From IMG/VR virus record IMGVR_UViG_3300018405_000011: DNA of 64,000 nt; one strand, 5' to 3'. The position numbers and the translations under genes are program-made. The notes below the pieces were generated by a model. That model worked only from the letters and a program-made list of their open reading frames with translations, was not told the origin of the DNA and ran no database searches. This document shows positions 4,061-62,653 of the stretch, piece after piece. Source of the DNA: a virus (lineage: Duplodnaviria > Caudoviricetes). How positions within the stretch are numbered: the stretch's first letter is position 1; each line of letters starts with the position of its first letter.

Positions 4061-4062
4061 CC

Positions 4063-10490: not shown

Positions 10491-10493
10491 ACG

Positions 10494-11288: not shown

Positions 11289-11297
11289 GGGGGGATT

Positions 11298-18397: not shown

Positions 18398-19330
18398 ATG
18401 ATTGATACAGCATATGAAACTACCTACGGGCGTCAGTTTAAAAACCTTTTTACTGAAGCCATGGATTTCTCCATTAAAAACATTCTAAGACGCAGTGACA
18501 ATATTCTTCCTTTCGGAGAGAAAGAAAACCTCTTTAAAATCTCTCCTGAGATTACGACTGATGAACTCCTGCCTTTCCGTTTACCGGTTTCTTTTACTTA
18601 CCGAGACAAGTTCTATACGGTAGTTGACACACGTGCATTCGAAGGGGCAGACGGTAAGATTCGTCAGCAGCGTGAACTTGATGCTTTAGCGATGCGTGCT
18701 AAATACATGCACAGTTGGATTGAAGAGCCAAGTCTCTATGAATCTGTCTTACCCGAACTGTCCATTCTTTTTGCGGAATGGATGGTTCAATCCATTACTC
18801 AACGCCACGGTCCTACCATTGCCCAGCAAGAAATTATTCGCATTTATCTAGCATGTTATTACCGTACCCTTATGTTTACGGCGGACGACTTAAAACAAGT
18901 CGATGCAGATTATCTCGGTGAAGTCCTATTTAAGTTTGCAGTGACTCAACTTAAAATGCCGCGTGACTTTGTTACTAGCGTTATGGAAGATGAGAACTTT
19001 ATTAAGGTTCTTAACAACCTGATTGCCGTAGGTAAAAGCGACTTAAATAACTGGTTGACTGGGCTTAACCTCTATCTAGATACACCGGCAATACGTTTAG
19101 ACAGTTCGGCGTTAATTATCCTGACGGTATCCGCGAGCTGGATGGGTTGGGGTGCACAAGACATTGCCGGTACGGCTATTGAGTATCCGCCTATGTTAGC
19201 CTACATGGCCAATATGGCGATGACCCTAGGGGTCTATCGACGCACCAAGATAGGAATGGCTGTAGAAGCCTGTAAGCGTCGACGTGTGAAAATGGAGACC
19301 TTAACCAGTTGGGCAAAGGAAATCATCTAA
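18398..19330 (+). CDS. Structural protein (phiKZ gp28-like)
   Basis: Starts MIDTAYETTYG; divergent from the sheath; synteny with gp28-27-26-terminase. Confidence 0.6.
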   Translation: MIDTAYETTYGRQFKNLFTEAMDFSIKNILRRSDNILPFGEKENLFKISPEITTDELLPFRLPVSFTYRDKFYTVVDTRAFEGADGKIRQQRELDALAMRAKYMHSWIEEPSLYESVLPELSILFAEWMVQSITQRHGPTIAQQEIIRIYLACYYRTLMFTADDLKQVDADYLGEVLFKFAVTQLKMPRDFVTSVMEDENFIKVLNNLIAVGKSDLNNWLTGLNLYLDTPAIRLDSSALIILTVSASWMGWGAQDIAGTAIEYPPMLAYMANMAMTLGVYRRTKIGMAVEACKRRRVKMETLTSWAKEII

Positions 19331-19348
19331 CCATTTTAGGGGCGCACC

Positions 19349-22222
19349 ATGATTGATTTATCAACGGCCTTAATTCGAGACGCACTGACAAATGCCTGGG
19401 CAAACCCTGCCCAGGATAGACAGGTCCTAATTAAGCCAAAACAAGTAACCTCTGCACGAGGAACCATAGGGGCTTACCGTACGCCTTACAGTAGCTATCC
19501 GGTTCCCGATACCACCCATCGATGGATGCTTTATGAGTATGGGCAACTGCCGCCTCGATTTATTGGGTTAGACTTAGATAACTCAGTGTGGCGTTCTCTT
19601 AAAGAAGTCATGTCCCAGGAGGACGTGATCGCATTTCCAATGATACGTCATCGTATGCTTATGACGTCTACGGTAAAGGTAATTCGTCTTAATAACAATA
19701 ACCTTTTGTTTGCCGTAGAGATGGCATCCAATGCAGCGTTAATGAAAACAGATACTGACCTCTATGTTCGTTTTTACAGTAATGCGTTCTTTAGTACTGT
19801 AGAAGGCAGTGCCTATGGCGGTATTGAAACAGACGGCATTTTTGCGACAGATGGGACTGAAGCCGCGGCTCTACTGTCAGTATACAATACTTCTGGATAT
19901 GCAAACAGCGGTACGACATGGTGGTTTAAAAACGGTTATCTTACAGATAAGCCGACAGTTAACGACATTGCTATTGGCGATAACCTCCAGTACATATGGG
20001 ACTCATCGGGTATTCAGTACTACGATGTCCAGTTGAAGAACCTAACTTCCTTTACTAGCATTAAAGATCAAGTCTCTAAACTGTTGTTGGTAACGCCCGG
20101 TTACGTAGATACTGACTTAGTGTTCTATGACGATATCGAAATCTTCTTATACTCCGTTGATTTAAATGGTAAGAAGAAAGGTTGCTACTATGATCGTCAA
20201 CGCGTATCGGATTTAAGTCAAGTCACTTATCGTGACTGGAGTTTAGATGGTACACGCCTATCCGAAGTCATCTTAGAGCAAAATGGAGAGATTAACTACT
20301 CCTCGGCTTTTGTTCGAGTATACCTGCGTAAAACGGTAGCGATTACAACCGATATCGGTGACGGGTCTTACCTCGGTGACTTTTATAATATTGATGCGGC
20401 TGACCGCTATCGCATTCTTACCGGAAGCTACGGTAGCTTAACACGCTGGAAAGCGGCTGAGCTGGAAAACTCTCCGTTCATGAAATGGCTAGGAAGTGTA
20501 GGTACGGCATTAACGGAAGAGGACGTGCATCAGGTCTATAATTACTACGGGCTTCAACGTGCTGTACAGTTACCGGTTAAAAATGCAGGGGCATGGATTT
20601 TACCAGAAATGGCAAAGCAAGGCTGCCTTGTGGTTAATCTAGATTCCAATGGCGAATACCTAAGCCAGCAAGTCTATACTGAGGCAAGTTTTGGTATCGG
20701 GGTCCATACCCCAGTAGGGGATGTTGCAGATATCCTTGTCTACTGTGGTAACCTAATCACGACTCCAGTAGCAATGGACTTACCCGTGGTGTTAGGAAAT
20801 GATATTCCAGGTATCTTTGATGAAGAGCGGTTTTATTATGTCGGTGCGACACAGCAATGGGTAATTGCCACACAAGGGGCAGATTACACGTATACCGCCT
20901 CTACAGGGGCGATAGAGTGGTCATCGACTCATAACAGTACTTCTAAACTAAAACGCAGTGCTGGGCATTACACGCATCGTGAGCTTACCATTCCCTACAG
21001 TTCACTCTGTACACCAATCGATATCTTTGCGAATGGCACCCTTCCATCATCTAAACATGACTTTGGTCGAGTAGATGTATGGATAGATAACCAACGTGCT
21101 GTACCGGGATTGGATTATTTCGTGGATGGCTTTAAGTTGTACCTAACCACGAAAGAGTACATCGATTTAGAAACCGATGTAGACTCTAATCCACAACTTG
21201 CCCACGTTCGTTTTATTGCCCATGGTTTACCTAAGGATAGCGAAGCAGGTCAATATGGCTTTGTCGTGGAAGGAATGGTGAATCACGATAACGATATTGA
21301 TTTGGTTAAGAACCGCAATCAGACGTTGTTTATTAATGGCCGTAAGACGGATGTAAGTCAAGTATGGCTTGCTGAGGACTATCGTGGGGAATACGCGGTT
21401 AGATTTTCTACCGGGACTCTAGTGTCGTGGAGGGAAGGGACTGAGTATGTAGAGTACACACCTGTCGTCTATGACCGTGTTCTGTATGTTGCGCCATTAG
21501 GTGGCGTTGGCGCAACCCAGGTCTTTGATGAGACATTGTGGTTACGTGTATGGGAACTTAGTCATTTTACCTATGATGATAATGGGGTTACCCGCCACGT
21601 GAAGATTCACGCCGGTAAAGATACTGTACTAGTACGAAGTGTTGCCGTAGATGGCATTGAGGAAGAACCCGATACGTTTATTCCGCTGGCTTTGGGGGCT
21701 GACTATCAGCTTACCCCAGGATTGCCACTATCTGCTCCTCCAGCAAATGCCAGTACTTATCAGTTCACCAGTACTGCCAATGTCATTTCTCGTTTTGTCG
21801 CGCAGACCCTCGCTGAAAATGAAGCAGATAGTCGGACTATGACATCGACCATCTCTGCTTACCTAGAGGCACTCAGTCCGTCATATGAACTTAAAGGACC
21901 GATTAATATCCCTAGGCAGCACAGAGTCGTCAGTCCATTTATATCAGCGCTTACTAAGGCTATTCAAGCCGGGGAAATCAACCTGACCAGCGCTGACTTA
22001 AGTGAAGCGGCGGTCGATTTTCTTACTCGGGACTATCAGTATCTCTTTCATTATGACCCAGTCTATGACGATACGCAAAACCATGACTTTATTACTGGTT
22101 ATGGGCACTGTGAACTAGAAGCCATTGCGCTGCCAGCAAGGGCAGTCAACTTCCTAGCAAAATGCAGTGAGTATTTCTTTGACGGGCGTATACAAATTAA
22201 CCGCGACTTTACCATCGCGTAA
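19349..22222 (+). CDS. Large baseplate/structural protein (phiKZ gp27-like)
   Basis: 957 aa; WANPAQDRQ N-terminus and SQVTYRDWSL motif; synteny. Confidence 0.62.
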   Translation: MIDLSTALIRDALTNAWANPAQDRQVLIKPKQVTSARGTIGAYRTPYSSYPVPDTTHRWMLYEYGQLPPRFIGLDLDNSVWRSLKEVMSQEDVIAFPMIRHRMLMTSTVKVIRLNNNNLLFAVEMASNAALMKTDTDLYVRFYSNAFFSTVEGSAYGGIETDGIFATDGTEAAALLSVYNTSGYANSGTTWWFKNGYLTDKPTVNDIAIGDNLQYIWDSSGIQYYDVQLKNLTSFTSIKDQVSKLLLVTPGYVDTDLVFYDDIEIFLYSVDLNGKKKGCYYDRQRVSDLSQVTYRDWSLDGTRLSEVILEQNGEINYSSAFVRVYLRKTVAITTDIGDGSYLGDFYNIDAADRYRILTGSYGSLTRWKAAELENSPFMKWLGSVGTALTEEDVHQVYNYYGLQRAVQLPVKNAGAWILPEMAKQGCLVVNLDSNGEYLSQQVYTEASFGIGVHTPVGDVADILVYCGNLITTPVAMDLPVVLGNDIPGIFDEERFYYVGATQQWVIATQGADYTYTASTGAIEWSSTHNSTSKLKRSAGHYTHRELTIPYSSLCTPIDIFANGTLPSSKHDFGRVDVWIDNQRAVPGLDYFVDGFKLYLTTKEYIDLETDVDSNPQLAHVRFIAHGLPKDSEAGQYGFVVEGMVNHDNDIDLVKNRNQTLFINGRKTDVSQVWLAEDYRGEYAVRFSTGTLVSWREGTEYVEYTPVVYDRVLYVAPLGGVGATQVFDETLWLRVWELSHFTYDDNGVTRHVKIHAGKDTVLVRSVAVDGIEEEPDTFIPLALGADYQLTPGLPLSAPPANASTYQFTSTANVISRFVAQTLAENEADSRTMTSTISAYLEALSPSYELKGPINIPRQHRVVSPFISALTKAIQAGEINLTSADLSEAAVDFLTRDYQYLFHYDPVYDDTQNHDFITGYGHCELEAIALPARAVNFLAKCSEYFFDGRIQINRDFTIA

Positions 22223-38125: not shown

Positions 38126-39127
38126 ATGAAAACCAAACTAATGATTTACGGCTGTGGTGGTACAGGACTTAACCTACTGCAGGATGTGATTGACCACCCT
38201 AATCTACCGACTCAATCACCGGTAGATGCTGTACGTATTGACCTGTCTAACGCAAACGAGCGTAAGGACTGTCCTCTACCAAATTACTCTATTCCTGGTA
38301 CCGGCGCTGGTAAAGACCGTGCTTTAGCACTCGAACAAACACGTCCTCACATTGACGACATCCTTAAGCAGCACTTACCTGGCACCAACAACATCGTACT
38401 GTTCAGTGCCGCAGGCGGTACGGGTTCAGTCGTTGGTCCTCTTATTATCGCTGAACTGTTACGTCGCGGACATTCTGTAACAGCCTTTGTAGTAGGTTCT
38501 ACCTTAACGGGTAAGCACTGTAAGAACACACATAAAACATTGCTTACCTTACAGCAGCAAGTACGCAACATTAAAGTGCCTTTAGCATTGGCGTATTATG
38601 AGAACGCAGAAACTGAGACTGAGACAGGTCGTAAAGGTAATCGCCCTATGGTCGATAAGACGATTGCTAACGATATTTACCGTATGTCTCTTCTTTCTTC
38701 AGAAACACATCGTGAGCTTGACCGTAACGACTTTAAGAACTTCTTAGACTATCGTAAAGTTACCGATGTACCACCACAGCTTACCGAAATTATCTTTGGT
38801 GTAGTGGGCGATGAGAACGCGAATGACTTTAGCGCATACCAAGGTTCCGTTATCAGTTCTGTCTCTGTGCTACGCTCTAAAGCCGATACGGGTCCTGACT
38901 TAGGTCAGCCTTATGGCGCCGAAGGTTACTATCAAGAAGAAGTCGTAGAAGAGTACGGTGATAAAGCCCATGGCCAATGTGCGATTCTGACAACATTGAA
39001 TCTAAGCACCTATATGGATAATGTGCTGGCACGACTACAGCATTTAGAAGAAGTGGAAGAAAACCTAAAGCGCGATAACGGTTTCCGCTGTGATATTGCT
39101 TCTGATGACGATGACGTCCTACTATAA
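38126..39127 (+). CDS. phuZ: PhuZ phage tubulin
   Basis: IYGCGGTG, GAGKDR, tubulin signature SAAGGTGSVVGP, ELDRND T7 loop and an acidic C-terminal tail ending DDDDVLL. Confidence 0.93.
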   Translation: MKTKLMIYGCGGTGLNLLQDVIDHPNLPTQSPVDAVRIDLSNANERKDCPLPNYSIPGTGAGKDRALALEQTRPHIDDILKQHLPGTNNIVLFSAAGGTGSVVGPLIIAELLRRGHSVTAFVVGSTLTGKHCKNTHKTLLTLQQQVRNIKVPLALAYYENAETETETGRKGNRPMVDKTIANDIYRMSLLSSETHRELDRNDFKNFLDYRKVTDVPPQLTEIIFGVVGDENANDFSAYQGSVISSVSVLRSKADTGPDLGQPYGAEGYYQEEVVEEYGDKAHGQCAILTTLNLSTYMDNVLARLQHLEEVEENLKRDNGFRCDIASDDDDVLL

Positions 39128-42886: not shown

Positions 42887-42916
42887 AAGAATCTAGTAGG
42901 ATTAAGGAGATTACCC

Positions 42917-43333
42917 ATGACCATTTATGACATTGTCCCTGGACAGAAACTGAAGTTTTCAATCTATGGACAGATTAACAGCGTGAAGAACTTCGAAGGA
43001 ACAATTGCCGGGCTAGTACTCGGCAGCTATGTTCCACAAACCGAAGACCCTTCCATTAACCATGCTAACATTTACCCAACCTTACCGGACTCTCGTAAAG
43101 AAGCGTTCCAAGACCTTTATACTTCATACCAGTATGTTCAGCTAGTACGTGCGGATAACAGCATTGTATATATCGGACTACCATGGATTAATGATGCAAC
43201 CATTGAGTCTTTAGAAAACGTTATTTGTGACATCCGCCTAACTAACTTTAAAGCTTCTCGTCGTGACGAACTCGTTCTCAAGTTAGCACAGTGGAACTTT
43301 GATGTAGAAAAGATAACGGTATCGACCGAGTAA
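42917..43333 (+). CDS. Conserved chimallivirus protein preceding DNA polymerase (phiKZ gp49-like)
   Basis: HANIYPTLP...YQYVQL...GLPWI motif; position directly upstream of the polymerase. Confidence 0.6.
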   Translation: MTIYDIVPGQKLKFSIYGQINSVKNFEGTIAGLVLGSYVPQTEDPSINHANIYPTLPDSRKEAFQDLYTSYQYVQLVRADNSIVYIGLPWINDATIESLENVICDIRLTNFKASRRDELVLKLAQWNFDVEKITVSTE

Positions 43334-47555: not shown

Positions 47556-49433
47556 ATGTTCGATCCAAATGAAAACAAAGCACCTAAAGCAACTAAAGTT
47601 CCAGCAGGCGACAATACTCAAGCAACATCGCAATCAAGCGACTTTTTCTCTGACTATCTAGCCGGTGCTTCTGACGTAGCATCACGTTCTTCTGAAATCG
47701 TAGTTAAGGCAGTTGAGTTCCTAAACAAACGTTCTGAAGACGCTAAGCGTCTAAACGCTGACCGTGTAGGTCTACGTTTCACTCACATCGATGACGAAAC
47801 AGCGCTAGGTCTACCTGTTATCATCGCTTACAACACTAAAGGTCCGGTTAACGGTTTCTTCACTATCATCGTTGAAGAAGGCGCATACGACGGTAAGTTA
47901 AAAGGTCGTGAAGTACATGTACTGAACGAACAGATTGTTATCGACCAATCGACTTCTGATTATTGGGATGGTATCTTAGTTACAACTATCGCTAAGCATC
48001 TGAAGCAGCTTACTCAAAAAGACTATGCGCACAATAGCTACATGGTTGCACGCGAGTGCATGGACTTGTCTAACGAGAAGTACCTAGGTGCACTATACGC
48101 GACATCAGAGCGTAACCTAATGTCTCTGTCTGTAGTTAATGTCCCAACAATCGAAAACTTGAACCAACACGGTCTGTCATTGGAAATAAGCCATGACGTA
48201 TCACCTGGTGCAACAGTTGAAGATTTAGAAGGTAACCCTGTTTACTGTGACGTTGAATCAACCGTAAGTCTAGGTGTGCCACGTGACCGCAACAACAAAA
48301 ACCGTTCACACAATGCCCGTGAGCGTCGTGCTACTCTTGTAAACGTACGTAGTTACCTAGACTTCGTGTTCCAACCAGCAAGTCAAGTCGCTACGTTACC
48401 TGGCACTCAAGAAATGATTCGCCCAGCATACCACCCAGTATTGATTCAAGCAGACAGCTCAGGTATCGATGCTCAAACTGGTAAAGCATTTGAATCACGT
48501 GAAACTGCACTGTTCGCATTGCTAGCAATGGCAGAGCTGGCGGCTAACCGTAACTACATCAACATTCTGCGTCGTAACCACGGCGGTAAACCAGAAATTG
48601 GTGTATTAGGCTACCGTTGGGAAGGTCGCTACGGTGTACAAGACTGGGTACCGGCCGAAGTAGAAATCGATAAAGGTATCGCTACTGGCATGAACTCAGG
48701 TCGTCAAACACTGGATGCTTACCTAAAACGTAACGTACACGACACTATTACAGTAGCAGTCGACGTACTACGCGGTGGTCGTAACGCATGGATCTATGAA
48801 CCATACGTACAGTCAGTGCTAGCGAACAACCCAAATGACCGTCTAGAAGCGAACACCAATATTGTTCGTATGATTGACGCGTTCACTAAAGGTCACTTCT
48901 CTGCACTATGGCCAGAAAACAAACCTATCTTCCAAGAGTCTGTTGTTGCAGTACACTCAGCAACTTACTTAGACAAAGATGGTCACGTACATGACGTACG
49001 TGAATGTGGTACGCTACAGCTACACCAACTTTACAAAGAGCAAACTGATGCACGCATGGCTGAGTTTGAAAAATCAATGGCACCGGGTGGTTCTAACGGT
49101 GATGTTGGTCTAGTCAACATTCACAATCGTCGTCAAGTACTAAAACAAGTACTAGGTGCAGAAATCAATGGTATGATTGAACGTCTGTTCTACATGCCTG
49201 ACTTCTTCCCTGTGTTCTTAGAAGCGTGTGGTCGCGCTGGTCTTCGTGTTAGCTCTGAAGGTCTACACGACACAACTGTAGCTGGTAACATGGGCGTGGA
49301 TAACTTCCACGCTGGTCAAATGCCTACAATGACAGGTATTTACCAAACCTCTACAGGTGGTTATGCAAACGGCCAAGGTCAATACATCGGTGGCAACTAC
49401 AGCTACGGTGCATATGGTGCCTACAACGGTTAA
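47556..49433 (+). CDS. chmA: Chimallin, major phage nuclear shell protein (phiKZ gp54-like)
   Basis: 625 aa; position between the gp52-like gene and nvRNAP beta'; disordered N-terminus and Gly/Tyr-rich C-terminus; visibly high-expression codon bias; early promoter and strong terminator. Call rests on synteny and size, not alignment. Confidence 0.8.
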   Translation: MFDPNENKAPKATKVPAGDNTQATSQSSDFFSDYLAGASDVASRSSEIVVKAVEFLNKRSEDAKRLNADRVGLRFTHIDDETALGLPVIIAYNTKGPVNGFFTIIVEEGAYDGKLKGREVHVLNEQIVIDQSTSDYWDGILVTTIAKHLKQLTQKDYAHNSYMVARECMDLSNEKYLGALYATSERNLMSLSVVNVPTIENLNQHGLSLEISHDVSPGATVEDLEGNPVYCDVESTVSLGVPRDRNNKNRSHNARERRATLVNVRSYLDFVFQPASQVATLPGTQEMIRPAYHPVLIQADSSGIDAQTGKAFESRETALFALLAMAELAANRNYINILRRNHGGKPEIGVLGYRWEGRYGVQDWVPAEVEIDKGIATGMNSGRQTLDAYLKRNVHDTITVAVDVLRGGRNAWIYEPYVQSVLANNPNDRLEANTNIVRMIDAFTKGHFSALWPENKPIFQESVVAVHSATYLDKDGHVHDVRECGTLQLHQLYKEQTDARMAEFEKSMAPGGSNGDVGLVNIHNRRQVLKQVLGAEINGMIERLFYMPDFFPVFLEACGRAGLRVSSEGLHDTTVAGNMGVDNFHAGQMPTMTGIYQTSTGGYANGQGQYIGGNYSYGAYGAYNG

Positions 49434-50314: not shown

Positions 50315-51646
50315 ATGATAGGTGCCCGTGTCTTTAACTTCGTTAACTTAGACAATGTTATCCAGCGGATGGATAAACCTCCCATTATCATTAACCAGCT
50401 TGCGCTCGATACGGAAGAAGACAGAAAACTCTTAGAGTCTTTAACCGTAACACGCTATGAAGCTACTGACGTGTTTTCTACTGTCCCTATGTGTTCCTGC
50501 CGCCGCACTAAGGTCGCTGAAGCCTTAGGGACTATCTGTGAGCACTGTGGTACAGAAGTCGTGTCTCACCACAACCAAGCCATGGAATCCGAACTGTGGA
50601 TATCCGTCCCAGACGGGATTGAGTATTTCCTTTCTCCTCTGCCATGGATATTCTTAAATCAACGCCTCTCTGCTCGAGGCTTTAACGGCTTACAATGGGC
50701 CATGGATTCTAAAATCCCAGACCCAGAAGAGTCTAACAAGAAAGCCTCTTCTATTGTTAACCGCTTTAAACAAGCGGGTTTTGTTCGTGGGTTATCTCAC
50801 CTCAAAGACCAATTCGACACTATAGTCGATGTTGCTATTAGAGAAACCCAATCGGCTCAAAAGCGAGTTGAGTTACTAAACTTCATTGACTACTACAAGG
50901 ATGCCCTGTTTGTCAAACACATCCCTATTCCGTCTAAGGTCGCGTTTACCATAGAGAATACCGCCTATGGTAACTATTTCGACCGTACAATGACTTCCGC
51001 AATAGAAGCCATCTTCTCAGCAGCAGGTACGTCCTCTATGCGTAACATCAAACGCTTAGAGTCACGCTTTACCTCTATCTTAGTTAACCTAACGGCTTAC
51101 TATGAAGACGTGGTTACCAATAACCTGTCATCTAAGTCAGGATGGCTGCGCCGAGTAAACTACGGCACTCGTATGAACTATTCCTTCCGGAATATCATTA
51201 CGTCCTACCATGGTCTACATGAGGTCGATACGATATTGGTTCCGTACCATCAGCTATTAACGGTGTTAGAACCTTTAGTCGTGGCTCACCTCATCCGTGA
51301 GTATAACCATACCCACAGTCAGGCTCAAGCCTATGTAATCCAACACGCTACCGATAAAGACCCACTGTTGTGGGAAATATTGGAAATGTTCATTGACGAA
51401 ACGCCACCTGTGCCTGTATCGGAAACAGCGCACGTAGTGACGCTAGATAAGGGAGGAAGACCGGTACTCACGGATTTACCGTGTACACTTACTACACGTA
51501 AGGTTAGAACCGGTGGAGGTATACGCTGTGCCCTTACGCGCTATCCCTCATTATCCCGTTCTAGCACGCAGGGCGTTAGGATAGTTGGATTAAGTGACTG
51601 CGAGATAAGGATTTCAGTCCTTGCTCTACGTGGTCCAAACGCCGAC
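50315..51646 (+). CDS. Non-virion RNAP beta'-like subunit (phiKZ gp55-like), exon 1
   Basis: Zn-ribbon CSC...CEHC; KSGWLRRVNYGTR and RYPSLSR motifs; ends GPNAD. Confidence 0.9.
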
Positions 51647-53021
51647 AAACTAAAGTACAGTTTGCTCCATTAAGGAGAAACTCGTGGAAATTAAACTACA
51701 CGGAGACACTTTCAGAAAATCTTTAGAACATCCTTCTATTGTCGTTTCTCGGACCGGCAAACTCTTTAATCTAAAAGAAAACGCTTACATTGAAATCAAT
51801 CCTCCTAAAGAAGATTGGTACTTGACGTTTACTTCTCCTGACACAGGCAAGACATCATTACTCCATCGCTTAGTTGGGGAATGCTGGGTGTCTAACCCTA
51901 GCCCGGAAACGTTCACCCTGATTAACCATAAGAACGGTAATAAACATGACCCGCACTTTGGAAATCTAGAGTGGACCGACCATAGTGGTAATATACGTCA
52001 CGCCTATGAACATGGTCTACGTACCGAAATGCAGACACTCGAAGTTTTCGATAAAGTAACACAGAAATGGTTTAAATCTAAAGGTCTAAATAAGACCGCG
52101 GCCTTAATCGACCTATCTCCGGCGCAACTGTCTTATCACCTTAAGGCAAAGGGCTGGTTTGAAAATGCCAATTTCATCACTCAGCTTTCTAACCTGGAAA
52201 GCCGTAAGGTGGCTGACCGTACTTTGTTTCCAGTAGGTGTTTTCGCCAAAGATATCGAAACAGGGAAGGTCGTTATAGCTGAAAACATTTCGCGCCTATC
52301 TAAAACCATAGGGGTTCCGAAGTCCAATATAAGACGTTGCATAGTGAAGGGAAAAGAATACCCCTCCAATGGCTACTTGTTTAGTTTGGACGGTGAGTTC
52401 CCAGAGACATGGAAAGATAACCATCGGACTAAAAAAGCCGTGGTCTACTTACATGAAGACGGGCGTAGAGTAATTGCCGTTTCGGATAGAGAAGCACAGA
52501 AACTGACAGGTATTAATGCTAAGCGTATAGTTAGAATGAAGAAAGAAGGTTCATCCTTTAAAGGTTGGAAAGTGCAAACTGGATAAGTCCGCCTCTATGG
52601 TGACATACAGGTGAGAATACGTGAATTGCTGGTAAAGTCTAAAGCCTAACACCAAAACGGATAGCGAAAGCTAAAACGGTAACGGTGACGAAAGTCAGAA
52701 AAGACGTTAGGATGACCTATGGTGAGAGCCTAAGGGTTTTGACAATGGACAGCTCAGCAGCCAAGCGCCTACGGATTGTTGTGATAACAAGCTATGGTGA
52801 AGGTTCAACGACTATTACTGGGTACGGCACCCGATGTAGGAGAGCAAGCGCCTCCGAAGTGCGTATATCTGGAGTTGACTGAAGAAGTCTTATTCTCCAG
52901 AACTGATATAGTCTCGGCGTATCGCAAGATACCTGCTAGCCTGTGATGGTTAGTCGTCCGGTGAAACCCCGGAGCAGCATTAAGTTGCGGGTAAGGGATA
53001 GCATCCTTACTGAAGATAACG
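51647..53021 (+). mobile_element. Group I intron (1375 nt) with an HNH gene in the P1 loop, in the NADFDGD motif of nvRNAP beta'
   Basis: P AATTGCTGGTAA (52624), Q TCAGCAGCCAAG (52754), R GTTCAACGACTA (52803), S CTGATATAGTCT (52903), putative IGS GTCCGC (52587-52592), terminal G at 53021. Splicing restores NAD|FDGD. Confidence 0.9.
51684..52586 (+). CDS. Intron-encoded HNH homing endonuclease (I-HmuI-like, NUMOD repeats)
   Basis: LHRLVGECWV...INHKNGNKHDPHFGNLEWTDHSGNIRHAY plus C-terminal NUMOD1-like repeats; GTG start after AAGGAG. Confidence 0.9.
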   Translation: MEIKLHGDTFRKSLEHPSIVVSRTGKLFNLKENAYIEINPPKEDWYLTFTSPDTGKTSLLHRLVGECWVSNPSPETFTLINHKNGNKHDPHFGNLEWTDHSGNIRHAYEHGLRTEMQTLEVFDKVTQKWFKSKGLNKTAALIDLSPAQLSYHLKAKGWFENANFITQLSNLESRKVADRTLFPVGVFAKDIETGKVVIAENISRLSKTIGVPKSNIRRCIVKGKEYPSNGYLFSLDGEFPETWKDNHRTKKAVVYLHEDGRRVIAVSDREAQKLTGINAKRIVRMKKEGSSFKGWKVQTG

Positions 53022-53213: not shown

Positions 53214-53288
53214 ATTAGAAAAAAAGAATAGTCTGCAGGTAGTGACTACTACCTGCGGTTGTTCTATCTATAAAGAGAAGTGTATAGG

Positions 53289-54979: not shown

Positions 54980-55609
54980 ATGCTTAATACCATTTATGCC
55001 GATAGCGACGTCGGCATTGCCAGTTTGTTTGGTCGGCCCAGCCAAGCCTTACAAGCTAGAATCAATCAAGGGGTACAGGCTTTCTTAGAAAGAACCAGCC
55101 CCTATTGTTCAGACTTAGCGGCATCGGTAGCCCACCGTTTCCATGAATATACACATGGTGACTTTGCCCGCCGTGTAAATAGCGTCCGTGGGTACATTAA
55201 TCAAAGCTTTAAATCTGATGGAATCCGTTATCTATCTAATGTAGAAGAGTTACAGAATGCCCCTGCATCAATGCGTCATTATGTAATGGCACATCCTGGC
55301 ATGCGTGAACTCTATCAGCAAAACTGTATCGAAGGCTATGGCGATGCTTATCGTGATGCTTCGCCAACAGGTATTGGTCGCACTCACTACGACTATCGCG
55401 TCATTACTAATGGTGTTGTACAAGCAGAAGAAATGGATGACGGAGAAACAAGAATGATAGCTCGTCGTTATTACGAAGCGGTAGTGCCTGAGTACACGCC
55501 TACGTTAAGCGATAAGGCCGCAGTACAGATTACCTACGATGTACTGACTCGTCATTTACGTGACTCATTGCTTGACCCTAGTTCTGAAAACAATGCCTTA
55601 ATCGGCTAA
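54980..55609 (+). CDS. Conserved chimallivirus core protein (phiKZ gp59-like, reported as an import factor in phiKZ)
   Basis: HPGMRELYQQNCIEGYGDAYRDASPTGIGRTHYDYRVITNG motif as recalled; ATG at 54980 after GGAG. Confidence 0.55.
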   Translation: MLNTIYADSDVGIASLFGRPSQALQARINQGVQAFLERTSPYCSDLAASVAHRFHEYTHGDFARRVNSVRGYINQSFKSDGIRYLSNVEELQNAPASMRHYVMAHPGMRELYQQNCIEGYGDAYRDASPTGIGRTHYDYRVITNGVVQAEEMDDGETRMIARRYYEAVVPEYTPTLSDKAAVQITYDVLTRHLRDSLLDPSSENNALIG

Positions 55610-55662
55610 TAAAAGAAAGGGCGTTTGTCCTTTCTTTTTTGTCAACTATAGGAACCACCATC

Positions 55663-56076
55663 ATGCCCGTACCTGCAATAGGCACTCTATCGTCAGACGG
55701 TTACGTTACTGACCCTAAAAAACAACTTTCGTATATGTTTGCCCACATATTCGAAACCCGTCATAATGACACCATCCTTTTCACAGGACAACTTACTTCG
55801 ATTCAGTTACTGACCGCTAAGTACGCTAAAGACAGTGCGGTGTTTCGTACCGAACTTACGGCAGCATTAACAAAATACTTTTCTCGTGTCTTTGATAGTG
55901 CTAAAGTTATCGTTACCACTGAAGATATCGATGAGTCTAGCTACATGGCTTCTATAGACGTCAAGGTGACGCGTAATGGCGAACTTTATAGCTTAGGTGC
56001 TGAGCTGTCTATAGACCCCTTAAAATCCATTACACGCCTGATTAAGGAGATTAACCAGTCAATAACCTCCCCCTAA
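55663..56076 (+). CDS. Conserved structural protein (phiKZ gp62-like); last 5 residues and stop supplied by the IscB element
   Basis: MPVPAIGTLSSDGYV...HIFETRHNDT motif; C-terminus KEINQ-SITSP overlaps the element left end. Confidence 0.6.
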   Translation: MPVPAIGTLSSDGYVTDPKKQLSYMFAHIFETRHNDTILFTGQLTSIQLLTAKYAKDSAVFRTELTAALTKYFSRVFDSAKVIVTTEDIDESSYMASIDVKVTRNGELYSLGAELSIDPLKSITRLIKEINQSITSP

Positions 56077-56304
56077 AGGGGTAGGCTTGTAAAAGCCTAA
56101 TTGACCAGCCTTAGTTCTTAACAGAACTACGTTATCTTAGTTATCATACCCTGGGGTGGCCGGTCCAGCCCCAGGCTCTATGCAGGCTCTGTAAACAGTT
56201 CTAGAGGTAAGAACCGTCAACCTGGTGAGCCGATTACGGTAAGCTTTGATAACATTGGCGAGGACCACTTAACTGCTTAAATGCACGTAAACAGGAACGA
56301 TATT
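56058..56304 (+). ncRNA. omegaRNA scaffold 1 (guide is the host sequence just 5' of 56058)
   Basis: GTCAA...TTGACCAGCC, ACTACGTT, ATACC and CATTGGCGAGG elements typical of omegaRNA; compensatory changes relative to copy 2. Confidence 0.85.
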
Positions 56305-57762
56305 ATGTCTAATTCCGTATTCGTCTTAAATGACGATAAAACGCCCTTAATGCCGTGTAAGCCGGCTAGGGCGAGATTATTATTAAAACAAGGTAGGGCG
56401 GCTGTGTTTAGAACCCATCCCTTTACTATCATTCTAAAAGAACAGATAGAGAACCCTGTACTGGAAACGATAAGGGTAAAGGTAGACCCCGGTAGTAAAA
56501 CCACCGGGATAGCCTTAACAGTTCACTATAAAAGAGGAGTAAAGTGCATCTGGGGAGCCAACCTAGAACACCGAGGTCATGCTATAAAAGATGCATTACT
56601 ATCTAGAGCACAGTGTCGTAGAGGGAGGCGTGGCCGAAAGTTACGCCACCGTAAACCTAGATTCTTAAATCGGTTTAAACCTGAGGGATGGCTTGCACCA
56701 AGCATTATGTCTAGAGTAGATAATACACTAACTTGGGTAAATCGCTTGATGCGGTACTGTCCTGTGGGACAGGCCTCTGTAGAACTTGTTAAGTTTGATA
56801 TGCAGAAGATGGAAAATCCTGAGGTTACAGGTAAAGGATACCAACAAGGTACTTTACACAACTATGAAGTTAAAGAATACTTACTGTATCGCTATAACCA
56901 TACTTGTCAGTATTGCAAAGGCGTCAGTAAAGACCATATTCTAGAGATAGAGCACATTGTACCTAAATCTAAAGGAGGCACGAATAGTATTGGTAATCTA
57001 ACTTTAGCCTGTTCGAGCTGTAACCGACATAAGAATAACCATACTTTGAAAGACTGGTTAGAAATAAACCGTGGTCTAAAAACACCTCTGGCTAAAGCCA
57101 GGGTACGTAACATCCCTAGTGTGATATCAAGACGTAAACCTACGCTTAGAGACGCTGCCGCTGTCAATGCGACGAGACATAGGCTAGTAGAAGAGCTAGG
57201 GTTTTTAGGACTACCGACGGAGTCGGAGGGAGGGCATGTTACGAAGTATAACCGCCGCCGGCAAGGCTATCCGAAGGACCACTGGATAGATGCTGCGCTA
57301 GTAGGTGATACGGGCAGTAACGTGCACATACCGAAATCTACGCATCCGTTACTTATTAAAAAGACTAAAGTTAATAACCGTCAAATGACTAGGCCGGATA
57401 AGTATGGTTTTCCTAGAACTAAACCTAAAGGCCCGTCTAAAGCCTTCGGGTTTAAAACAGGTGATGTGGCTAAGCATGGTAGGCTTATTGGCCGCGTAGC
57501 GATAAGAACATGCGGTTACTTTAACTTTTTAGGTAAAGGCTGCAGTTACCGGCACTTAAAACGTATCCAGTCAGTAGATGGTTACCAGTACACCGACGGT
57601 AAGTTAACAAGTCTAATAACAGAAACCGACTACTTGCCATGGTTTACTTATGTACATTCCGTTACTAAAATAGATGGTAGTGCTAAAAAGATAACTGGCA
57701 AGCTTAATAAGGAGGGAAAGAGATTTTTATGTACACCAAAAAATACATCAGGCACGTCCTGA
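56305..57762 (+). CDS. iscB: IscB RNA-guided endonuclease 1 (485 aa)
   Basis: PLMP domain, RuvC-I VDPGSK, RRGRR bridge helix, RuvC-II VELVKFD, HNH CQYC...EIEHIVP...GGTN...NL...CNRHK, RuvC-III KDHWIDA. Start inferred from alignment with copy 2. Confidence 0.93.
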   Translation: MSNSVFVLNDDKTPLMPCKPARARLLLKQGRAAVFRTHPFTIILKEQIENPVLETIRVKVDPGSKTTGIALTVHYKRGVKCIWGANLEHRGHAIKDALLSRAQCRRGRRGRKLRHRKPRFLNRFKPEGWLAPSIMSRVDNTLTWVNRLMRYCPVGQASVELVKFDMQKMENPEVTGKGYQQGTLHNYEVKEYLLYRYNHTCQYCKGVSKDHILEIEHIVPKSKGGTNSIGNLTLACSSCNRHKNNHTLKDWLEINRGLKTPLAKARVRNIPSVISRRKPTLRDAAAVNATRHRLVEELGFLGLPTESEGGHVTKYNRRRQGYPKDHWIDAALVGDTGSNVHIPKSTHPLLIKKTKVNNRQMTRPDKYGFPRTKPKGPSKAFGFKTGDVAKHGRLIGRVAIRTCGYFNFLGKGCSYRHLKRIQSVDGYQYTDGKLTSLITETDYLPWFTYVHSVTKIDGSAKKITGKLNKEGKRFLCTPKNTSGTS

Positions 57763-57802
57763 TTCCTCAGGGGACTAAAGTCCCCGGTATTCTCAGGAGA
57801 AA
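57763..57802 (+). repeat. Right-end subterminal hairpin of IscB element 1
   Basis: TTCCTCAGGGGACTAAAGTCCCCGGTATTCTCAGGAG; same CTAAAG loop as the left end; also supplies the RBS of the next gene. Confidence 0.75.
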
Positions 57803-57807
57803 ATAAA

Positions 57808-58284
57808 ATGAGTGGTTTTATAGTCCCAGAAAACGTTTTTCCTTCTATTAAGGAAAGTTTGTTCCGTGACCGTTATTTGCCTGCCTTCATTAATAACGAT
57901 AAAGAGCTTTGCTTAGAGTGGGTAGAGCGCATCTCTATCTCTCCCTTTGCAAAAGTACGTGTAGTCGATGATTCGGATATGGATAAGATTCTATTTGAAG
58001 TCCCGCCACTAGTACGTGGTCCAGAGACTCAGATAGGCGGAAACTTCAATGCCGTAATGCAAACCGCTAGCCGTATTGCAGAAAACTACAACAGTAAAGT
58101 GACTGAGCGCTATATCCGTGATACGTTAAATGGGCGCTTTGTCTGTGAAACCGAATCCGACGCTGACATGGAAGCGTGGATTGACATTGCAATTCGTTAT
58201 GGATATAGTCGTCCAGATACACCACAATCTACTGCCTCAGGAAACAATAATGGATTGGTTAACGAAGAAGAAGACTGGGATTAA
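57808..58284 (+). CDS. Conserved chimallivirus protein (phiKZ gp63/64-like)
   Basis: FRDRYLPAF...VRVVDD...LFEVPPL motif; precedes the SbcD-like gene. Confidence 0.55.
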   Translation: MSGFIVPENVFPSIKESLFRDRYLPAFINNDKELCLEWVERISISPFAKVRVVDDSDMDKILFEVPPLVRGPETQIGGNFNAVMQTASRIAENYNSKVTERYIRDTLNGRFVCETESDADMEAWIDIAIRYGYSRPDTPQSTASGNNNGLVNEEEDWD

Positions 58285-59422
58285 CATCCTTTACTTTTCC
58301 GATGTACATATGCTTCATCCCCGTGTACGCAGTCGAGATATTGCTGACCGATTACAAAAGCTAATCCTTAATGTTATCAAACACCATGTGTTAGACTATA
58401 TCATCATTGCTGGGGACTTTTATGATGAAAGTGGCTATTTACCCGATGAAGATGTATTTGTAGTAGAAGAGTTTATACGTGTGCTGATTCATCTATGTGC
58501 ACATAATCATATCAAGCTTCGGATACTAGAAGGTACCCCGTCCCACGATAGAAAGCAATCTCGCCACTTCGTTAAGGTAAATAATTTCCTTAGTGGAAAA
58601 GAAAAGGCCGACTTAAAATACATCGAGACATTGGACATTGTTAAGGAAGAAGATGGTTCGACATGGCTTTATGTCCCAGATGAATGGCATCATGACCCAG
58701 ATGTTGTCTGGAAGCAGGTACGGGATAGGCTGAATCAGGAAGGTTTAACTCAGGTAGACTTTTCCGTAACACACGGGATGTATAAGCACCATGTACCACA
58801 TGGACTGGATTTAAAAGCCCATGACCCTGACCGGTATCTGGATATCACCCGTTACTATGTAGACAATGGGCATATCCATACAAAGTCTGTCTACAAAGAC
58901 AGGTTCATTACCAATGGGTCACCTGACCGTTTGGCTATGGGGGAAGAGGAAAGTAAAGGGATATGGATGGCTCATGTAAGTAGTCACTCACGTATGGAAG
59001 ACAAATTGTTTTTCTTTGAAAATAAAGAAGCCACGTATATGGTAACTTTAGACATTAAAGAACATACCTTTGAGAGAAGTAAAGAAGTCATCGAGTCCCA
59101 TTGCCATCCTACAGAAAGACGCTTTATTCGTCTGGAAATCTCAGAAGAGCTTTATAGTCAAGGACTGATGAGTTATTTCCAAGACTTATACCCTAATATA
59201 GTCTGGACAAAAAAGGTCACTCGCAATGACAATATGCAAGTCTCTTTTTTAGAGGCATTAAATGCTAAAGTGCACAATAGACCTATTAATGCCAACACAA
59301 TCGAAGACCTTTTCTTAGAAGAAGCACGTCTTCGTAATGTAGACGAGAATGAGGTTATAGATGCCTTAGCTTTTTTGAAATCCCAACCCTTTTATGTCAG
59401 TAACCTCCCCCTAAAGGGGTAG
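58250..59422 (+). CDS. SbcD/Mre11-like metallophosphoesterase nuclease (phiKZ gp65-like); last 8 residues supplied by IscB element 2
   Basis: FSDVH, AGDFYD, EGTPSHD, THG, NGHIH and NGSPDRL motifs; ATG at 58250. Confidence 0.85.
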   Translation: MDWLTKKKTGINILYFSDVHMLHPRVRSRDIADRLQKLILNVIKHHVLDYIIIAGDFYDESGYLPDEDVFVVEEFIRVLIHLCAHNHIKLRILEGTPSHDRKQSRHFVKVNNFLSGKEKADLKYIETLDIVKEEDGSTWLYVPDEWHHDPDVVWKQVRDRLNQEGLTQVDFSVTHGMYKHHVPHGLDLKAHDPDRYLDITRYYVDNGHIHTKSVYKDRFITNGSPDRLAMGEEESKGIWMAHVSSHSRMEDKLFFFENKEATYMVTLDIKEHTFERSKEVIESHCHPTERRFIRLEISEELYSQGLMSYFQDLYPNIVWTKKVTRNDNMQVSFLEALNAKVHNRPINANTIEDLFLEEARLRNVDENEVIDALAFLKSQPFYVSNLPLKG

Positions 59423-59642
59423 GCATGTAAGTGCCTAACTGACCAGCCTTAGTCCCGTTAGGGACTACGTTATCTTAGTTATCATACCCCGGTGTGGCCG
59501 GTCCAGCACCGGGCGCTATGCAGGCTCTGTAAACATACCTAGAGGTAGGGTAAGTCAACCTGGAGAGCCGATTACGGTAAGCTTTGATAACATTGACGAG
59601 GACCACGTAACTGCCCTACGGGCACGTAAAGGGAACGATATT
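59396..59642 (+). ncRNA. omegaRNA scaffold 2
   Basis: Aligns end to end with scaffold 1, with compensatory substitutions in six stems. Confidence 0.85.
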
Positions 59643-61115
59643 ATGTCTAATTCCGTATTCGTCTTAAATGACGATAAAACGCCATTAATGCCGTGTAAAC
59701 CGGCACGGGCGAGATTATTATTAAAACAAGGTAGGGCAGCAGTTTTCAGAAAGCAGCCCTTTACTATCATTATGAAAGAACAGATAGAAAACCCTGTTCT
59801 TGAGAACATTGAGGTAAAGATAGACCCCGGTAGTAAAACCACCGGGATAGCGCTAGTAATGAATACTAAACGTGGAGCTAGATGTATCTGGGGTGCCAAC
59901 CTTAAGCACCGAGGTCAGCAGATACGTGATGCCTTATTGTCCCGCGCTCAAACGCGACGGGGGCGACGCAGTCGTAAACTGCGCTACCGTAAGCCTCGAT
60001 TTTTAAACCGAGTTAAATCTAAAGGGTGGTTGGCGCCCAGTATTTACACTCGAGTAGATAATACCCTCACTTGGGTTAACCGTCTTATGCGCTATTCGCC
60101 AGTGACGTCGGCAGTGGTTGAACTCGTTAAGTTTGATATGCAAAAGATGGAAAACCCGGAGATTGCAGGTAAGGCGTATCAGCGAGGAAGTCTCTTTAAC
60201 TATGAAGTTAAAGAGTATTTACTGTATCGATATAACCACACCTGTCAGTATTGTTCTGGTGCATCTAAAGACCCCATTTTGGAGATTGAACATATTGTTC
60301 CTAGAGCATCAGGTGGTAGCAATCGACTGAGTAACCTGACACTCTCCTGTGCGACATGTAACCGAGAGAAAGGGAAACTGTCTTTGGCTGACTGGAAGGA
60401 TAAATGTACCCACCGAAAAAACCCTATTGACATGAAGCGATTAAAAGGTATTGTTCGAGTGGGACAGAACATTAAGCCCGCACTGAAAGATGCGGCTGCC
60501 GTGAACGCTACTCGATATCGTCTAGTAGCTGAGCTGGACTATCTGGGACTACATACGGAAACCTCAGGAGGACACATTACCAAATATAATCGTAAGCAAC
60601 AGGGTTATCCGAAGGACCATTGGATAGATGCTGCTTTAGTCGGAGAAAGGGGTTCTCACGTTCATATCCCTCCGGAGTTACATCCTTTAATCATTAAAAA
60701 GGTAAAAGTTAATAACCGCCAGATGACAAAGCCTGACAAATATGGCTTCCCTCGAACGAAAGCTAAAGGTCCTTCCCGAGCTTTCGGTTTTAAGACAGGA
60801 GATATCGCGGCTTCCCCGTTTGGCGTGGGGAGGGTGGTCATCCGGACCTCGGGTACTTTTAACGTATTAGGAAGAGATGTTAGCTGGAAGCGTTTAGTCC
60901 ATCTCTCCTTTACTGACGGTTACGAATATGTGGACCAACGCATCGTCAAGATGATTGTTGATAAGCATACTGTAATTAAAGAGGTGTTTGAGAGAGTCAT
61001 ATCAAAAACATTAATTGACGCCGATTCCCTTCTCATAGAAGGTACATTGAATCGTAAAGTAGTTCATGGTATCCGTAGGGACAGTAAAACTAGAGACCAT
61101 ACTAAACTATATTAA
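59643..61115 (+). CDS. iscB: IscB RNA-guided endonuclease 2 (490 aa)
   Basis: PLMP, IDPGSK, RRGRR, VELVKFD, CQYC...EIEHIVP...CNREK and KDHWIDA all intact. Confidence 0.93.
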   Translation: MSNSVFVLNDDKTPLMPCKPARARLLLKQGRAAVFRKQPFTIIMKEQIENPVLENIEVKIDPGSKTTGIALVMNTKRGARCIWGANLKHRGQQIRDALLSRAQTRRGRRSRKLRYRKPRFLNRVKSKGWLAPSIYTRVDNTLTWVNRLMRYSPVTSAVVELVKFDMQKMENPEIAGKAYQRGSLFNYEVKEYLLYRYNHTCQYCSGASKDPILEIEHIVPRASGGSNRLSNLTLSCATCNREKGKLSLADWKDKCTHRKNPIDMKRLKGIVRVGQNIKPALKDAAAVNATRYRLVAELDYLGLHTETSGGHITKYNRKQQGYPKDHWIDAALVGERGSHVHIPPELHPLIIKKVKVNNRQMTKPDKYGFPRTKAKGPSRAFGFKTGDIAASPFGVGRVVIRTSGTFNVLGRDVSWKRLVHLSFTDGYEYVDQRIVKMIVDKHTVIKEVFERVISKTLIDADSLLIEGTLNRKVVHGIRRDSKTRDHTKLY

Positions 61116-61131
61116 TCATAAGGAGTAAACG

Positions 61132-61908
61132 ATGACTCCACGTACCGTAGGAGAAAAGTTAGCGTTTTCAGTAGGGACAGCTATCCCTTTAGAGGAACAC
61201 GTTGTTTCAGATGGGTATAAAGCCGACGCTATTCTGTTAAACGTGAAAACGTTATTTAGAAACTTCTGGGGGGCGTGGCCAAATACCGACCGTCCTCCAG
61301 TACAGCAAATGTTTGAGCTTTTTGTAGAAGAAGTTAGAGACATTATGGCACTGTGTCAAACGATGGGAATAACACCTGTCCTATATCACTTGACTTATGC
61401 CTCACTGAGCAATCGTTATCCGAATGCTACGTTAGTAGTTCCTAAGACCGATAACCAGAAGGCCTATGCCAGCGCCGAAGCAGCTATGATGAAGGTAGCC
61501 ATTAGTCAGTTCCCAGAAATGGTAAAGAGCGATTTAACATTACCGTCTTTTAACGGAAACGTTTATCTGTTAAGTTCATACCCAGTAGACTTACTTAATG
61601 CGCATCGCTATGTATCGTTAAAGTTACTCGAGAGCCATACGGGGAATGTGAAAGGACGCGCTGAGTGGTTTAGTAAACTCAGTAACGCTCCTGAACTACA
61701 ACACCTTCCATTTAACCATTTCATGTTACAGGTATTTGGTGACCGGGCTACTCAGTTTGTAGGCCAATCCCAGAAGATAAAGAAAGCCGTCATTAAACTA
61801 GCACTTTCTCGTAACTGGAATCAGTCTACTACCCTTACCCGTATACGTGAAAATCTCACATCGATTGAAGACAGTGACTTGCGCAAACAGTGCCTGTCAT
61901 TTGTCTAA
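61132..61908 (+). CDS. Conserved chimallivirus core protein (phiKZ gp66-like)
   Basis: NVKTLFRN, YPVDLL, LLESHTG and LPFN...LQVFGD motifs; synteny. Confidence 0.55.
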   Translation: MTPRTVGEKLAFSVGTAIPLEEHVVSDGYKADAILLNVKTLFRNFWGAWPNTDRPPVQQMFELFVEEVRDIMALCQTMGITPVLYHLTYASLSNRYPNATLVVPKTDNQKAYASAEAAMMKVAISQFPEMVKSDLTLPSFNGNVYLLSSYPVDLLNAHRYVSLKLLESHTGNVKGRAEWFSKLSNAPELQHLPFNHFMLQVFGDRATQFVGQSQKIKKAVIKLALSRNWNQSTTLTRIRENLTSIEDSDLRKQCLSFV

Positions 61909-62624: not shown

Positions 62625-62653
62625 TAGCTACGTCCTTTTAAAGGACGTAGCTA
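62625..62653 (+). terminator. Intrinsic terminator
   Basis: TAGCTACGTCCTT / AAGGACGTAGCTA inverted repeat. Confidence 0.6.

Follow-up and report, generated by a model that had tools for sequence, protein, structure and literature searches.

Two IscB–omegaRNA elements at gene boundaries of a chimallin-encoding jumbo phage, probably acting as RNA-guided homing elements

Introduction

IscB nucleases are the ancestors of Cas9, and nucleus-forming phages are known to shield their DNA from DNA-targeting RNA-guided nucleases. We analysed a 64,000-nucleotide stretch of viral DNA (IMG/VR record IMGVR_UViG_3300018405_000011; Duplodnaviria, Caudoviricetes; the whole stretch is called the window below), in which two IscB–omegaRNA elements, element 1 and element 2, lie among conserved phage genes. 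A note made by a model from the letters of this DNA (the original prediction) had pointed to both systems. The closest described systems are GstIscB/ISGst5 and related ISC elements (Meers et al., 10.1101/2023.03.14.532601). In GstIscB, the guide is the flank of the element, the target-adjacent motif (TAM) is the TnpA target motif TTCAT at the element's other end, and the ribonucleoprotein (RNP) cuts the joined element-free site (10.1101/2023.03.14.532601). The order of guide outside the end, omegaRNA, iscB, end hairpin and TAM is the same here, and so, on our reading, are a TAM that equals the transposase target motif, copies that mostly lack tnpA and a nuclease that cuts the element-free junction. 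The known elements of this type reside in a bacterial chromosome, whereas those of the window reside in a lytic, probably nucleus-forming phage; their target is the sister chromosome after excision, whereas the likely target here is a co-replicating phage genome. The ends of the elements described here also carry translation signals of the neighbouring genes, and the protein has an extra C-terminal module.

OgeuIscB–omegaRNA (PDB 7XHT, 7UTN, 8CSZ) has the same fold, catalytic residues and HEARO-type omegaRNA (sequence match to 7XHT, E 4e-25), and residues 5-431 of our model align with residues 4-495 of its chain at Z 16-17, whereas the structure-aligned residues are about 21-24% identical and the TAM is probably different. 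Among phage nucleases, the intron-encoded HNH protein gp210 of PhiPA3 (10.1101/2023.09.30.560319) is likewise a selfish nuclease in a chimallivirus, where it cuts a core gene of a co-infecting relative, and the setting is similar in that the window has a group I intron with an HNH open reading frame (ORF) 3 kb upstream of element 1. However, gp210 recognises its site through protein contacts and belongs to a self-splicing intron, whereas here an RNA guide would be rewritten at each insertion and the elements stand between genes. SegF, SegB and MobE of T-even phages are also encoded between conserved phage genes; some relatives carry them and others lack them, and in mixed infections they spread through the repair of breaks (PMC13565253). 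They use no guide RNA, and differences in the sequence of a nearby gene tell self from non-self, whereas here the inserted element would itself part the match to the guide from the TAM.

Full-length IscB homologues (42-47% identical) are found in Ralstonia phages Adzire and Simangalove, Microcoleus phage My-WqHQDG, a Nodularia phage and LR756508, but none of these phages encodes chimallin. In the searchable literature we found no paper that joins IscB with jumbo or nucleus-forming phages in substance, so that the claim of the original prediction that IscB is undescribed in nucleus-forming phages holds for that literature. What is new here is the two-copy state, the exact reconstruction of an empty site at an ATGA overlap, an age contrast showing movement between phages, and a phage-associated IscB clade with a C-terminal extension.

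Results

Two intact IscB–omegaRNA systems

The RNAs, predicted guides and nucleases are as follows.

56042-56057 (+), predicted guide 1, TTAAGGAGATTAACCA, the 3'-terminal 16 nt of the upstream gene, adjoining the HEARO scaffold on its 5' side
56058-56273 (+), omegaRNA-1 scaffold (HEARO), the left end of element 1; RF02033, 139 bits, E 7e-29, model 1-211 of 211
56305-57762 (+), iscB-1, 485 aa; Pfam RRXRR and HNH, catalytic residues, AlphaFold model
59380-59395 (+), predicted guide 2, the 16 nt that adjoin the second HEARO scaffold on its 5' side; occurs once in the window
59396-59611 (+), omegaRNA-2 scaffold (HEARO), the left end of element 2; RF02033, 117 bits, E 2e-23, full length
59643-61115 (+), iscB-2, 490 aa; Pfam RRXRR and HNH, 68% identical to IscB-1

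The gathering score of Rfam RF02033 is 83 bits, and the guide length of 16 nt was assumed for both elements. The first hairpin of omegaRNA-1 has a CTAAAG loop. Compensatory changes distinguish omegaRNA-2 from omegaRNA-1, and in eight phage-borne omegaRNAs we found compensatory double changes in 27 of 47 predicted base pairs.

In both proteins, the RRXRR domain (PF14239) is covered over its whole length (1-174 of 174), with E 4e-71 for IscB-1 and 9e-72 for IscB-2, and the HNH domain (PF01844) was matched at E 8e-13 and 6e-12. An alignment of 38 sequences showed that the RuvC residues D61, E160, H326 and D329 (485-aa numbering), the HNH residues H217 and N240, and the Cys4 zinc site C201, C204, C236 and C239 are invariant. 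The RuvC residues of IscB-1 align to the OgeuIscB motifs IDPG, VLEL and KDHYLDA, and the same motifs are present in IscB-2. We placed the start of IscB-1 at 56305 (MSNSVF..., kept in all three copies known to us, including the one from a relative described below); the upstream ATG at 56281 is less likely. Pairwise alignment showed that IscB-1 and IscB-2 are unrelated beyond about residue 430. The AlphaFold model of IscB-1 (predicted local distance difference test, pLDDT, 80.5) superposes over residues 5-431 on the IsrB, OgeuIscB and OrufIscB structures at Z 16-18, with Z 17.2 against the whole OgeuIscB chain. The ratio of nonsynonymous to synonymous substitution rates (dN/dS) was 0.22 between IscB-1 and the IscB of the relative, and 0.10 between IscB-1 and IscB-2, a pair in which the synonymous rate (dS) is saturated. 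By these comparisons, the two nucleases and the two RNAs are all intact, and purifying or structural selection acts on them. Pfam, Rfam and the alignments thus agree with the original prediction of two iscB genes with all RuvC and HNH catalytic motifs, each with a full omegaRNA; its spacing of 3.3 kb is also right, as the scaffold starts lie 3338 nt apart.

An 8-residue loop at residues about 385-395 (consensus VPxGKYxG, in the TAM-interacting region) is present in most relatives and absent in IscB-1 and the relative's IscB; IscB-2 retains three of its residues.

Element 1 lies in an ATGA stop/start overlap

The borders of element 1 were defined from the following features.

55639-56076 (+), conserved gene upstream of element 1 (phrog_3294), whose final five codons and stop are now omegaRNA-1 sequence
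56058-57807 (+), element 1, 1750 bp, with omegaRNA-1, iscB-1 and the right end
57763-57807 (+), right end of element 1, with the hairpin GGGGACTAAAGTCCCC at 57770-57785 and AGGAG at 57795-57799
57808-57813 (+), ATGAGT, candidate TAM of element 1 and also the start codon of a 158-aa gene

The homology of the upstream gene to its relatives stops at 56057/56058, and the downstream gene begins at 57808. When 56057 was joined to 57808, the resulting sequence, ...GAGATTAACCA/ATGAGT (the slash marks the junction), was colinear and free of insertions or deletions with ...AACGC/ATGAGT of the metagenomic relative L012 and ...AACCG/ATGACA of Vibrio phage Yong. Because the flank homology ends at 56057 and restarts at 57808, and the join reproduces the junction of the relatives, element 1 is 56058-57807. 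The first base of the omegaRNA scaffold is also the exact point at which the similarity between the two elements begins. In L012 and Yong, the conserved junction reads ...GAGATTAACnn/ATGA..., and the two genes share an ATGA stop/start overlap. These comparisons indicate that element 1 is an insertion sitting exactly in this overlap. The insertion gives the upstream gene a new stop inside the omegaRNA, five codons in, and leaves the native ribosome-binding site of the 158-aa gene stranded in the guide-1 region; the element brings a Shine-Dalgarno sequence, AGGAG, ten bases before the downstream ATG, which serves this gene.

The guide-1 flank is homologous to the empty sites of the relatives, with 13 of 16 positions identical. 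At 42897-42922, at the start of the SH3DP gene, a sequence close to the guide-1 target precedes ATGA (GATTAAGGAGATTA-CCC/ATGACC); relative to the reconstructed target of element 1 it has one base deleted and one substituted, and a 16-mer match with one mismatch is far beyond chance. This near-copy may be a shared translation-initiation context, or an off-target or secondary site.

Element 2 occupies another gene boundary

Element 2 follows the gene for an SbcD-like nuclease, a neighbour that had been named in the original prediction.

58250-59422 (+), SbcD-like nuclease gene, 390 aa, phrog_100, E 4e-39; its last eight codons and stop come from omegaRNA-2
61116-61131 (+), right junction of element 2, TCATAAGGAGTAAACG, without a hairpin

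The left border lies between 59395 and 59396. Since several joins each restore the stop codon of the SbcD-like gene, the right border is left open. The element-free alleles of relatives are too diverged to align with guide 2. The element-free alleles on which the original prediction depended do exist in relatives, as Vibrio phage Yong and a closer metagenomic relative have neither insertion, and at both positions their flanking genes abut. By this comparison, the two elements are discrete insertions, each at the boundary between genes of a conserved co-oriented block. We also inspected contigs of four public runs over 55600-61900, and none joins across either element, although assembled contigs would lose rare empty alleles; the contig breaks fall within the parts repeated between elements 1 and 2.

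A third element in a relative dates the movement

The closest homologue of IscB-1 in a collection of 5.8 billion proteins is 87% identical and lies on Logan contig SRR22535648_19352 (92.9 kb), which belongs to the closer relative, an approximately 80%-related phage whose SbcD-like protein is 82% identical. The element in question, in L015, is called e3 here. Its HEARO scored 129 bits, and its neighbours are the orthologues of genes 18398-19330 and 19349-22222 of the window. The corresponding place in the window is unoccupied.

19331-19351 (+), empty e3 site of the window; the insertion point is between 19348 and 19349, just before ATGATT

The two related phages thus have three insertion sites between them, each occupied in one of the phages and empty in the other. 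Over 1750 nt, which take in the right end, element 1 and e3 share 86.7% of their nucleotides, and their right ends are common up to ...GAGAAAATA, though they stand at different sites. The IscB-1 gene and the e3 IscB gene showed a dS of 0.43 (proportion of synonymous differences, pS, 0.33), whereas 11 backbone orthologues of the two phages (twelve gene rows less g209, which had been read in a wrong frame) gave pS 0.60-0.84 and dS from 1.2 to saturated; among them is the terminase, which is 92% identical in protein and 78% in DNA. An element dS of 0.43 against a backbone dS of at least 1.2 or saturated means that the elements moved between phages long after the phages split, and since the elements are younger than the split and occupy different sites, horizontal transfer, transposition or both are required. 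The first ~100 nt of the e3 omegaRNA (L015 7754-7969) are 96% identical to element 2 and 87% to element 1, and the rest of e3 resembles element 1; this mosaic suggests recombination between element types. On these divergence estimates, the element family has clearly moved between chimalliviruses recently.

Transposon ends and the candidate TAM

In element 1, the left hairpin lies within the first omegaRNA stem, and its CTAAAG loop recurs in the right hairpin at 57770-57785. In element 1, e3 and two distant homologues (L016 and L021), the loop of the right-end hairpin repeats that of the first omegaRNA hairpin (CTAAAG, CCTAAAGG or CCTGAAG). By analogy, this pair of hairpins is the IS200/IS605 arrangement of two TnpA-binding hairpins, and its retention at both ends of these four elements, two of them distant, suggests a part for TnpA acting in trans as well. 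A further ORF would not fit into either element. In line with the original prediction, which saw no tnpA in the window, no match to the Y1 transposase (PF01797) was found among 39 window ORFs scanned with Pfam; other large ORFs were compared with PHROGs only or with neither database, and the search did not extend to the rest of the genome (over 215 kb). Since neither carries tnpA, the elements are only non-autonomous members of IS200/IS605.

Element 1 and e3 both end directly before ATGA (ATGATC for e3) without target duplication, and their reconstructed empty sites are colinear with the real ones of relatives. On our reading of its orientation, the TTCAT of GstIscB becomes ATGAA in the direction of iscB, which may be compared with ATGAG at element 1 and ATGAT at e3. 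A 5' flank guide and a downstream ATGA fit the known guide and TAM geometry of IscB, and a TCAT/ATGA target motif would explain insertions on stop/start overlaps of co-oriented operons. An ATAAR motif common to both elements needs 3-5 nt insertions or deletions relative to the empty sites of relatives at element 1 and e3, so that we prefer ATGA for these two; ATAAR may hold for element 2. The NWRRNA motif of OgeuIscB fits none of the three junctions consistently. The homologue L024, compared with Pseudomonas phage pPa_SNUABM_DT01, gave no further TAM case, as the intergenic DNA is too diverged.

An IscB clade of phiKZ-like phages

In a tree of the 120 best homologues of the window IscBs, the two window proteins and that of e3 fell into a 23-member clade with an SH-like approximate likelihood-ratio (SH-aLRT) support of 99. 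Nine of the ten members examined, the two of the window included, lie in phiKZ-like contexts; L022 could be assigned to none. The contexts outside the window are as follows.

L015 (e3), contig of the relative, phiKZ-like
L016 and L019, adjoin PhuZ and DNA polymerase
L017, a 531-aa neighbour resembles Xoo-sp14 and Yong proteins
L020, adjoins phiKZ_gp29PR and PhiKZ_VTX
L021, the RNase H of its contig resembles those of Goslar and RSF1
L024, the RNase H of its contig is 71.5% identical to that of Pseudomonas phage pPa_SNUABM_DT01

A full-length HEARO precedes iscB in the clade wherever the contig allows, except in L020. Upstream of that iscB (10001-11494 of GCA_009771185.1), no HEARO match reached the gathering threshold, and the RNA may be diverged or lost.

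Most members (18 of 23) are at least 470 aa long, and the alignment showed that the extra length is an extension of 45-60 aa after the canonical C-terminal DGYxY. In the AlphaFold model of IscB-1, the extra C-terminal module (residues ~441-477) forms a beta-hairpin and a short helix at pLDDT 64-78, and residues ~441-485 extend beyond the end of every solved IscB. Among 50,697 INPHARED records, no full-length IscB match (at least 80% coverage) fell in a phiKZ-like phage; the sole jumbo-phage match there is LR756508 (484 kb), which gave no chimallin match, whereas the positive control Yong did. IscB relatives in IMG/VR are 44-49% identical and lie in proviruses or linear fragments by record class; neither chimallin nor Y1_Tnp was matched in the records holding them, and an IMG/VR pattern search with the SbcD-like protein returned no relatives. 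Taken together, the phylogeny and the gene contexts place the two elements in an IscB lineage that recurs in phiKZ-like phages.

The host phage and the surroundings of the elements

A PHROGs profile match identified the gene at 47556-49433 as the nuclear shell protein, chimallin (phrog_4795, E 1.4e-35). The window RNA polymerases are split subunits of the phiKZ type (PHROGs 2986, 2987 and 3148), and a phiKZ tail sheath and a divergent DNA polymerase are also encoded; a PhuZ-like tubulin was matched weakly at 38126-39127 (E 5e-6, under the Pfam cut-off). By its gene content, the host of the elements is a chimallin-encoding phiKZ-like jumbo phage that is predicted to form a nucleus. Among isolates, the Vibrio phage vB_VmeM-Yong genomes are nearest, with proteins about 50-58% identical, and megablast of the element region found no near-identical phage among the 50,697 phage records. 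The same phage is present in freshwater metagenomes of four studies, with contigs of up to 215 kb. In addition, contigs of a wastewater 'RNA-Seq' run (2025; the library may be DNA) match 57329-57609 and 55658-55808 with 0-1 differences at depth 2-3, so this phage or a near-identical one occurs beyond freshwater samples too. The 281-nt piece of iscB-1 was seen at 100% identity and depth ~3 in one of two such wastewater runs, in which the phage has small shares and the material may be DNA; no RNA library was listed for the phage.

The genes flanking the elements are conserved across phiKZ-like phages; the 258-aa flanking gene matches 290 records and often adjoins an SbcD-like gene. Upstream of this block lies the intron with an HNH gene that the original prediction had placed close to the elements.

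50315-51673, RNA polymerase beta-like gene, directly before the HNH ORF and intron
51684-52586, HNH endonuclease ORF, 300 aa, phrog_59, precedes the group I intron
52545-52934, group I intron, 52 bits, 3.1 kb upstream of element 1

The layout of 50315-52934 resembles that of the gp210 intron of PhiPA3. In the relative L012, an intron occupies the corresponding position (3733-4111), but the ORFs before it are different ones, of 458 aa (faintly matching NUMOD1) and 348 aa. The window contains another group I intron (3393-3810, 56 bits), which lies between the RNA polymerase beta'-like ORFs 1943-3412 and 4063-7998. Terminator-like hairpins at 53233-53258 and 62625-62653, with stems of 11 and 13 bp and T-rich tails, enclose the co-oriented block with both elements. 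As these strong hairpins enclose the block, the omegaRNAs probably come from one long read-through transcript.

Discussion

Since this IscB lineage recurs in nucleus-type phages and has moved between them recently, its members are probably RNA-guided selfish homing elements. We put at roughly 0.6 the probability that the window carries two non-autonomous IS200/IS605-type IscB–omegaRNA (OMEGA) elements in a chimallin-encoding jumbo phage, belonging to a lineage specialised on phiKZ-like phages and maintained by non-restorative homing. On the transcript of the gene block, each omegaRNA would be preceded by its guide, which is ~16 nt of flank. The loaded IscB would cut genomes in which the guide sequence directly precedes a TAM (ATGA-like for element 1), and such sites would be confined to genomes without the element, whether of the same phage or of close kin, that replicate in the same cell. 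The occupied site would be immune because GTCA, not a TAM, follows the guide match. Repair from an element-bearing genome would then copy the element in, which is 'non-restorative transposon homing'; with many phage genomes being copied side by side in an infected cell, an active RNP would convert the element-free ones. New ATGA gene junctions may occasionally be reached by Y1 TnpA supplied in trans. Element 1 keeps both hairpins, whereas element 2, having lost its right hairpin, would depend on homing alone. TnpA-independent, non-restorative transposon homing has been proposed for co-infecting phages and plasmids (2026 review, PMC13565253).

Several observations weigh against this proposal. 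The records contain no sibling that lacks the elements and matches a guide exactly, and each cluster of flank proteins consists of one member. Neither the reconstructed empty sites nor the downstream gene start gave an exact-pattern hit in the contigs of IMG/VR and JGI metagenomes, collections that do not contain this phage itself. The mismatches to guide 1 in both known relatives sit next to the TAM (13 of 16 identical), and the e3 guide matches this phage at 10 of 16 positions. The right boundary of element 2 was narrowed only to 61113-61132, and its TAM is not fixed. The missing tnpA counts here as well. The proposal also requires that the elements are expressed and that the 5' end of the guide is made from a long transcript. 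IscB would further have to enter the phage nucleus, from which Cas9-like nucleases are excluded. Programmable homing, as originally predicted, is thus partly supported by the intact systems, the insertions at core-gene junctions, the element-free alleles and the inter-phage movement, and what it still lacks is an exact-match target on record, the best being 13 of 16.

The original prediction had also regarded the elements as weapons. On that account they are kept because IscB RNPs cut the core-gene junctions of co-infecting relatives and exclude them, with homing as a secondary effect. It is true that the targets lie in conserved core-gene junctions: both are in core genes of about 290 phiKZ-like phages, and the guide-1 target is unusually conserved, with 13 of 16 positions kept even in Yong, whose proteins are ~50% identical. 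IscB is under purifying selection, element 2 is intact despite its missing transposon end, and nuclease interference between nucleus-forming phages has a precedent in PhiPA3 gp210 against PhiKZ (10.1101/2023.09.30.560319). However, the mismatches in every known relative adjoin the TAM. This is where Cas9-type enzymes tolerate mismatches least. The turnover of insertion sites in the clade resembles the cycle of a selfish element. A role in competition is not distinguishable here from plain selfish homing, which explains the data equally well, or from transposition, and we regard it as unlikely to be what keeps the elements.

A different account needs no traffic between phages, in that the elements would be passenger insertion sequences moved by a Y1 TnpA of the host or from elsewhere in the phage, with IscB serving only in 'restorative homing', in which it cuts the donor joint again on sister genomes after excision by TnpA, the canonical published role of IscB. 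The IS200/IS605-like hairpins at both ends of element 1, e3, L016 and L021, the insertion beside a TCAT/ATGA motif without target duplication and the three different sites within one lineage all fit this account. It is strained by the absence of tnpA among the 39 Pfam-scanned window ORFs, by element 2, which lacks the right hairpin yet has an intact nuclease and RNA, and by the access to DNA inside the shell that a host TnpA would need; moreover, among co-replicating genomes an active nuclease would make non-restorative homing nearly automatic. We consider it improbable as the whole explanation. Silent or decaying relics, fixed by drift or hitch-hiking and inactive now, would agree with the lack of any RNA evidence obtained, with a phage population on record that appears fixed for both insertions, and with the lost end of element 2. 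However, dN/dS values of 0.10-0.22 over full-length ORFs with all catalytic residues kept, omegaRNAs that covary and score far above the Rfam threshold, and the evident recent horizontal movement make this very improbable indeed.

Selfish homing thus remains the reading that we prefer, and a stronger form of it can be offered tentatively. The lineage may be adapted to nucleus-forming phages, with the C-terminal module or another surface passing the chimallin shell, which is closed to Cas9 and restriction enzymes; it would then act as an RNA-programmed gene drive and a means of exclusion among co-infecting chimalliviruses, in which insertions at ATGA junctions rewrite the target while the element repairs the translation signals. 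For element 1, insertion at an ATGA overlap with its own stop and ribosome-binding site shows how a transposon can live at low cost in a tightly packed operon. If the proposal is true, an importable, compact and programmable nuclease would be an editing tool for chimalliviruses, which resist Cas9-based engineering. Phages whose nucleus shields their DNA would themselves carry, keep under selection and exchange nucleases of the group ancestral to Cas9, which raises the questions of whether an RNA-guided nuclease can function inside the phage nucleus and what admits it, whether OMEGA elements act as gene drives in virus populations without a transposase, and whether such elements influence recombination and competition among jumbo phages.

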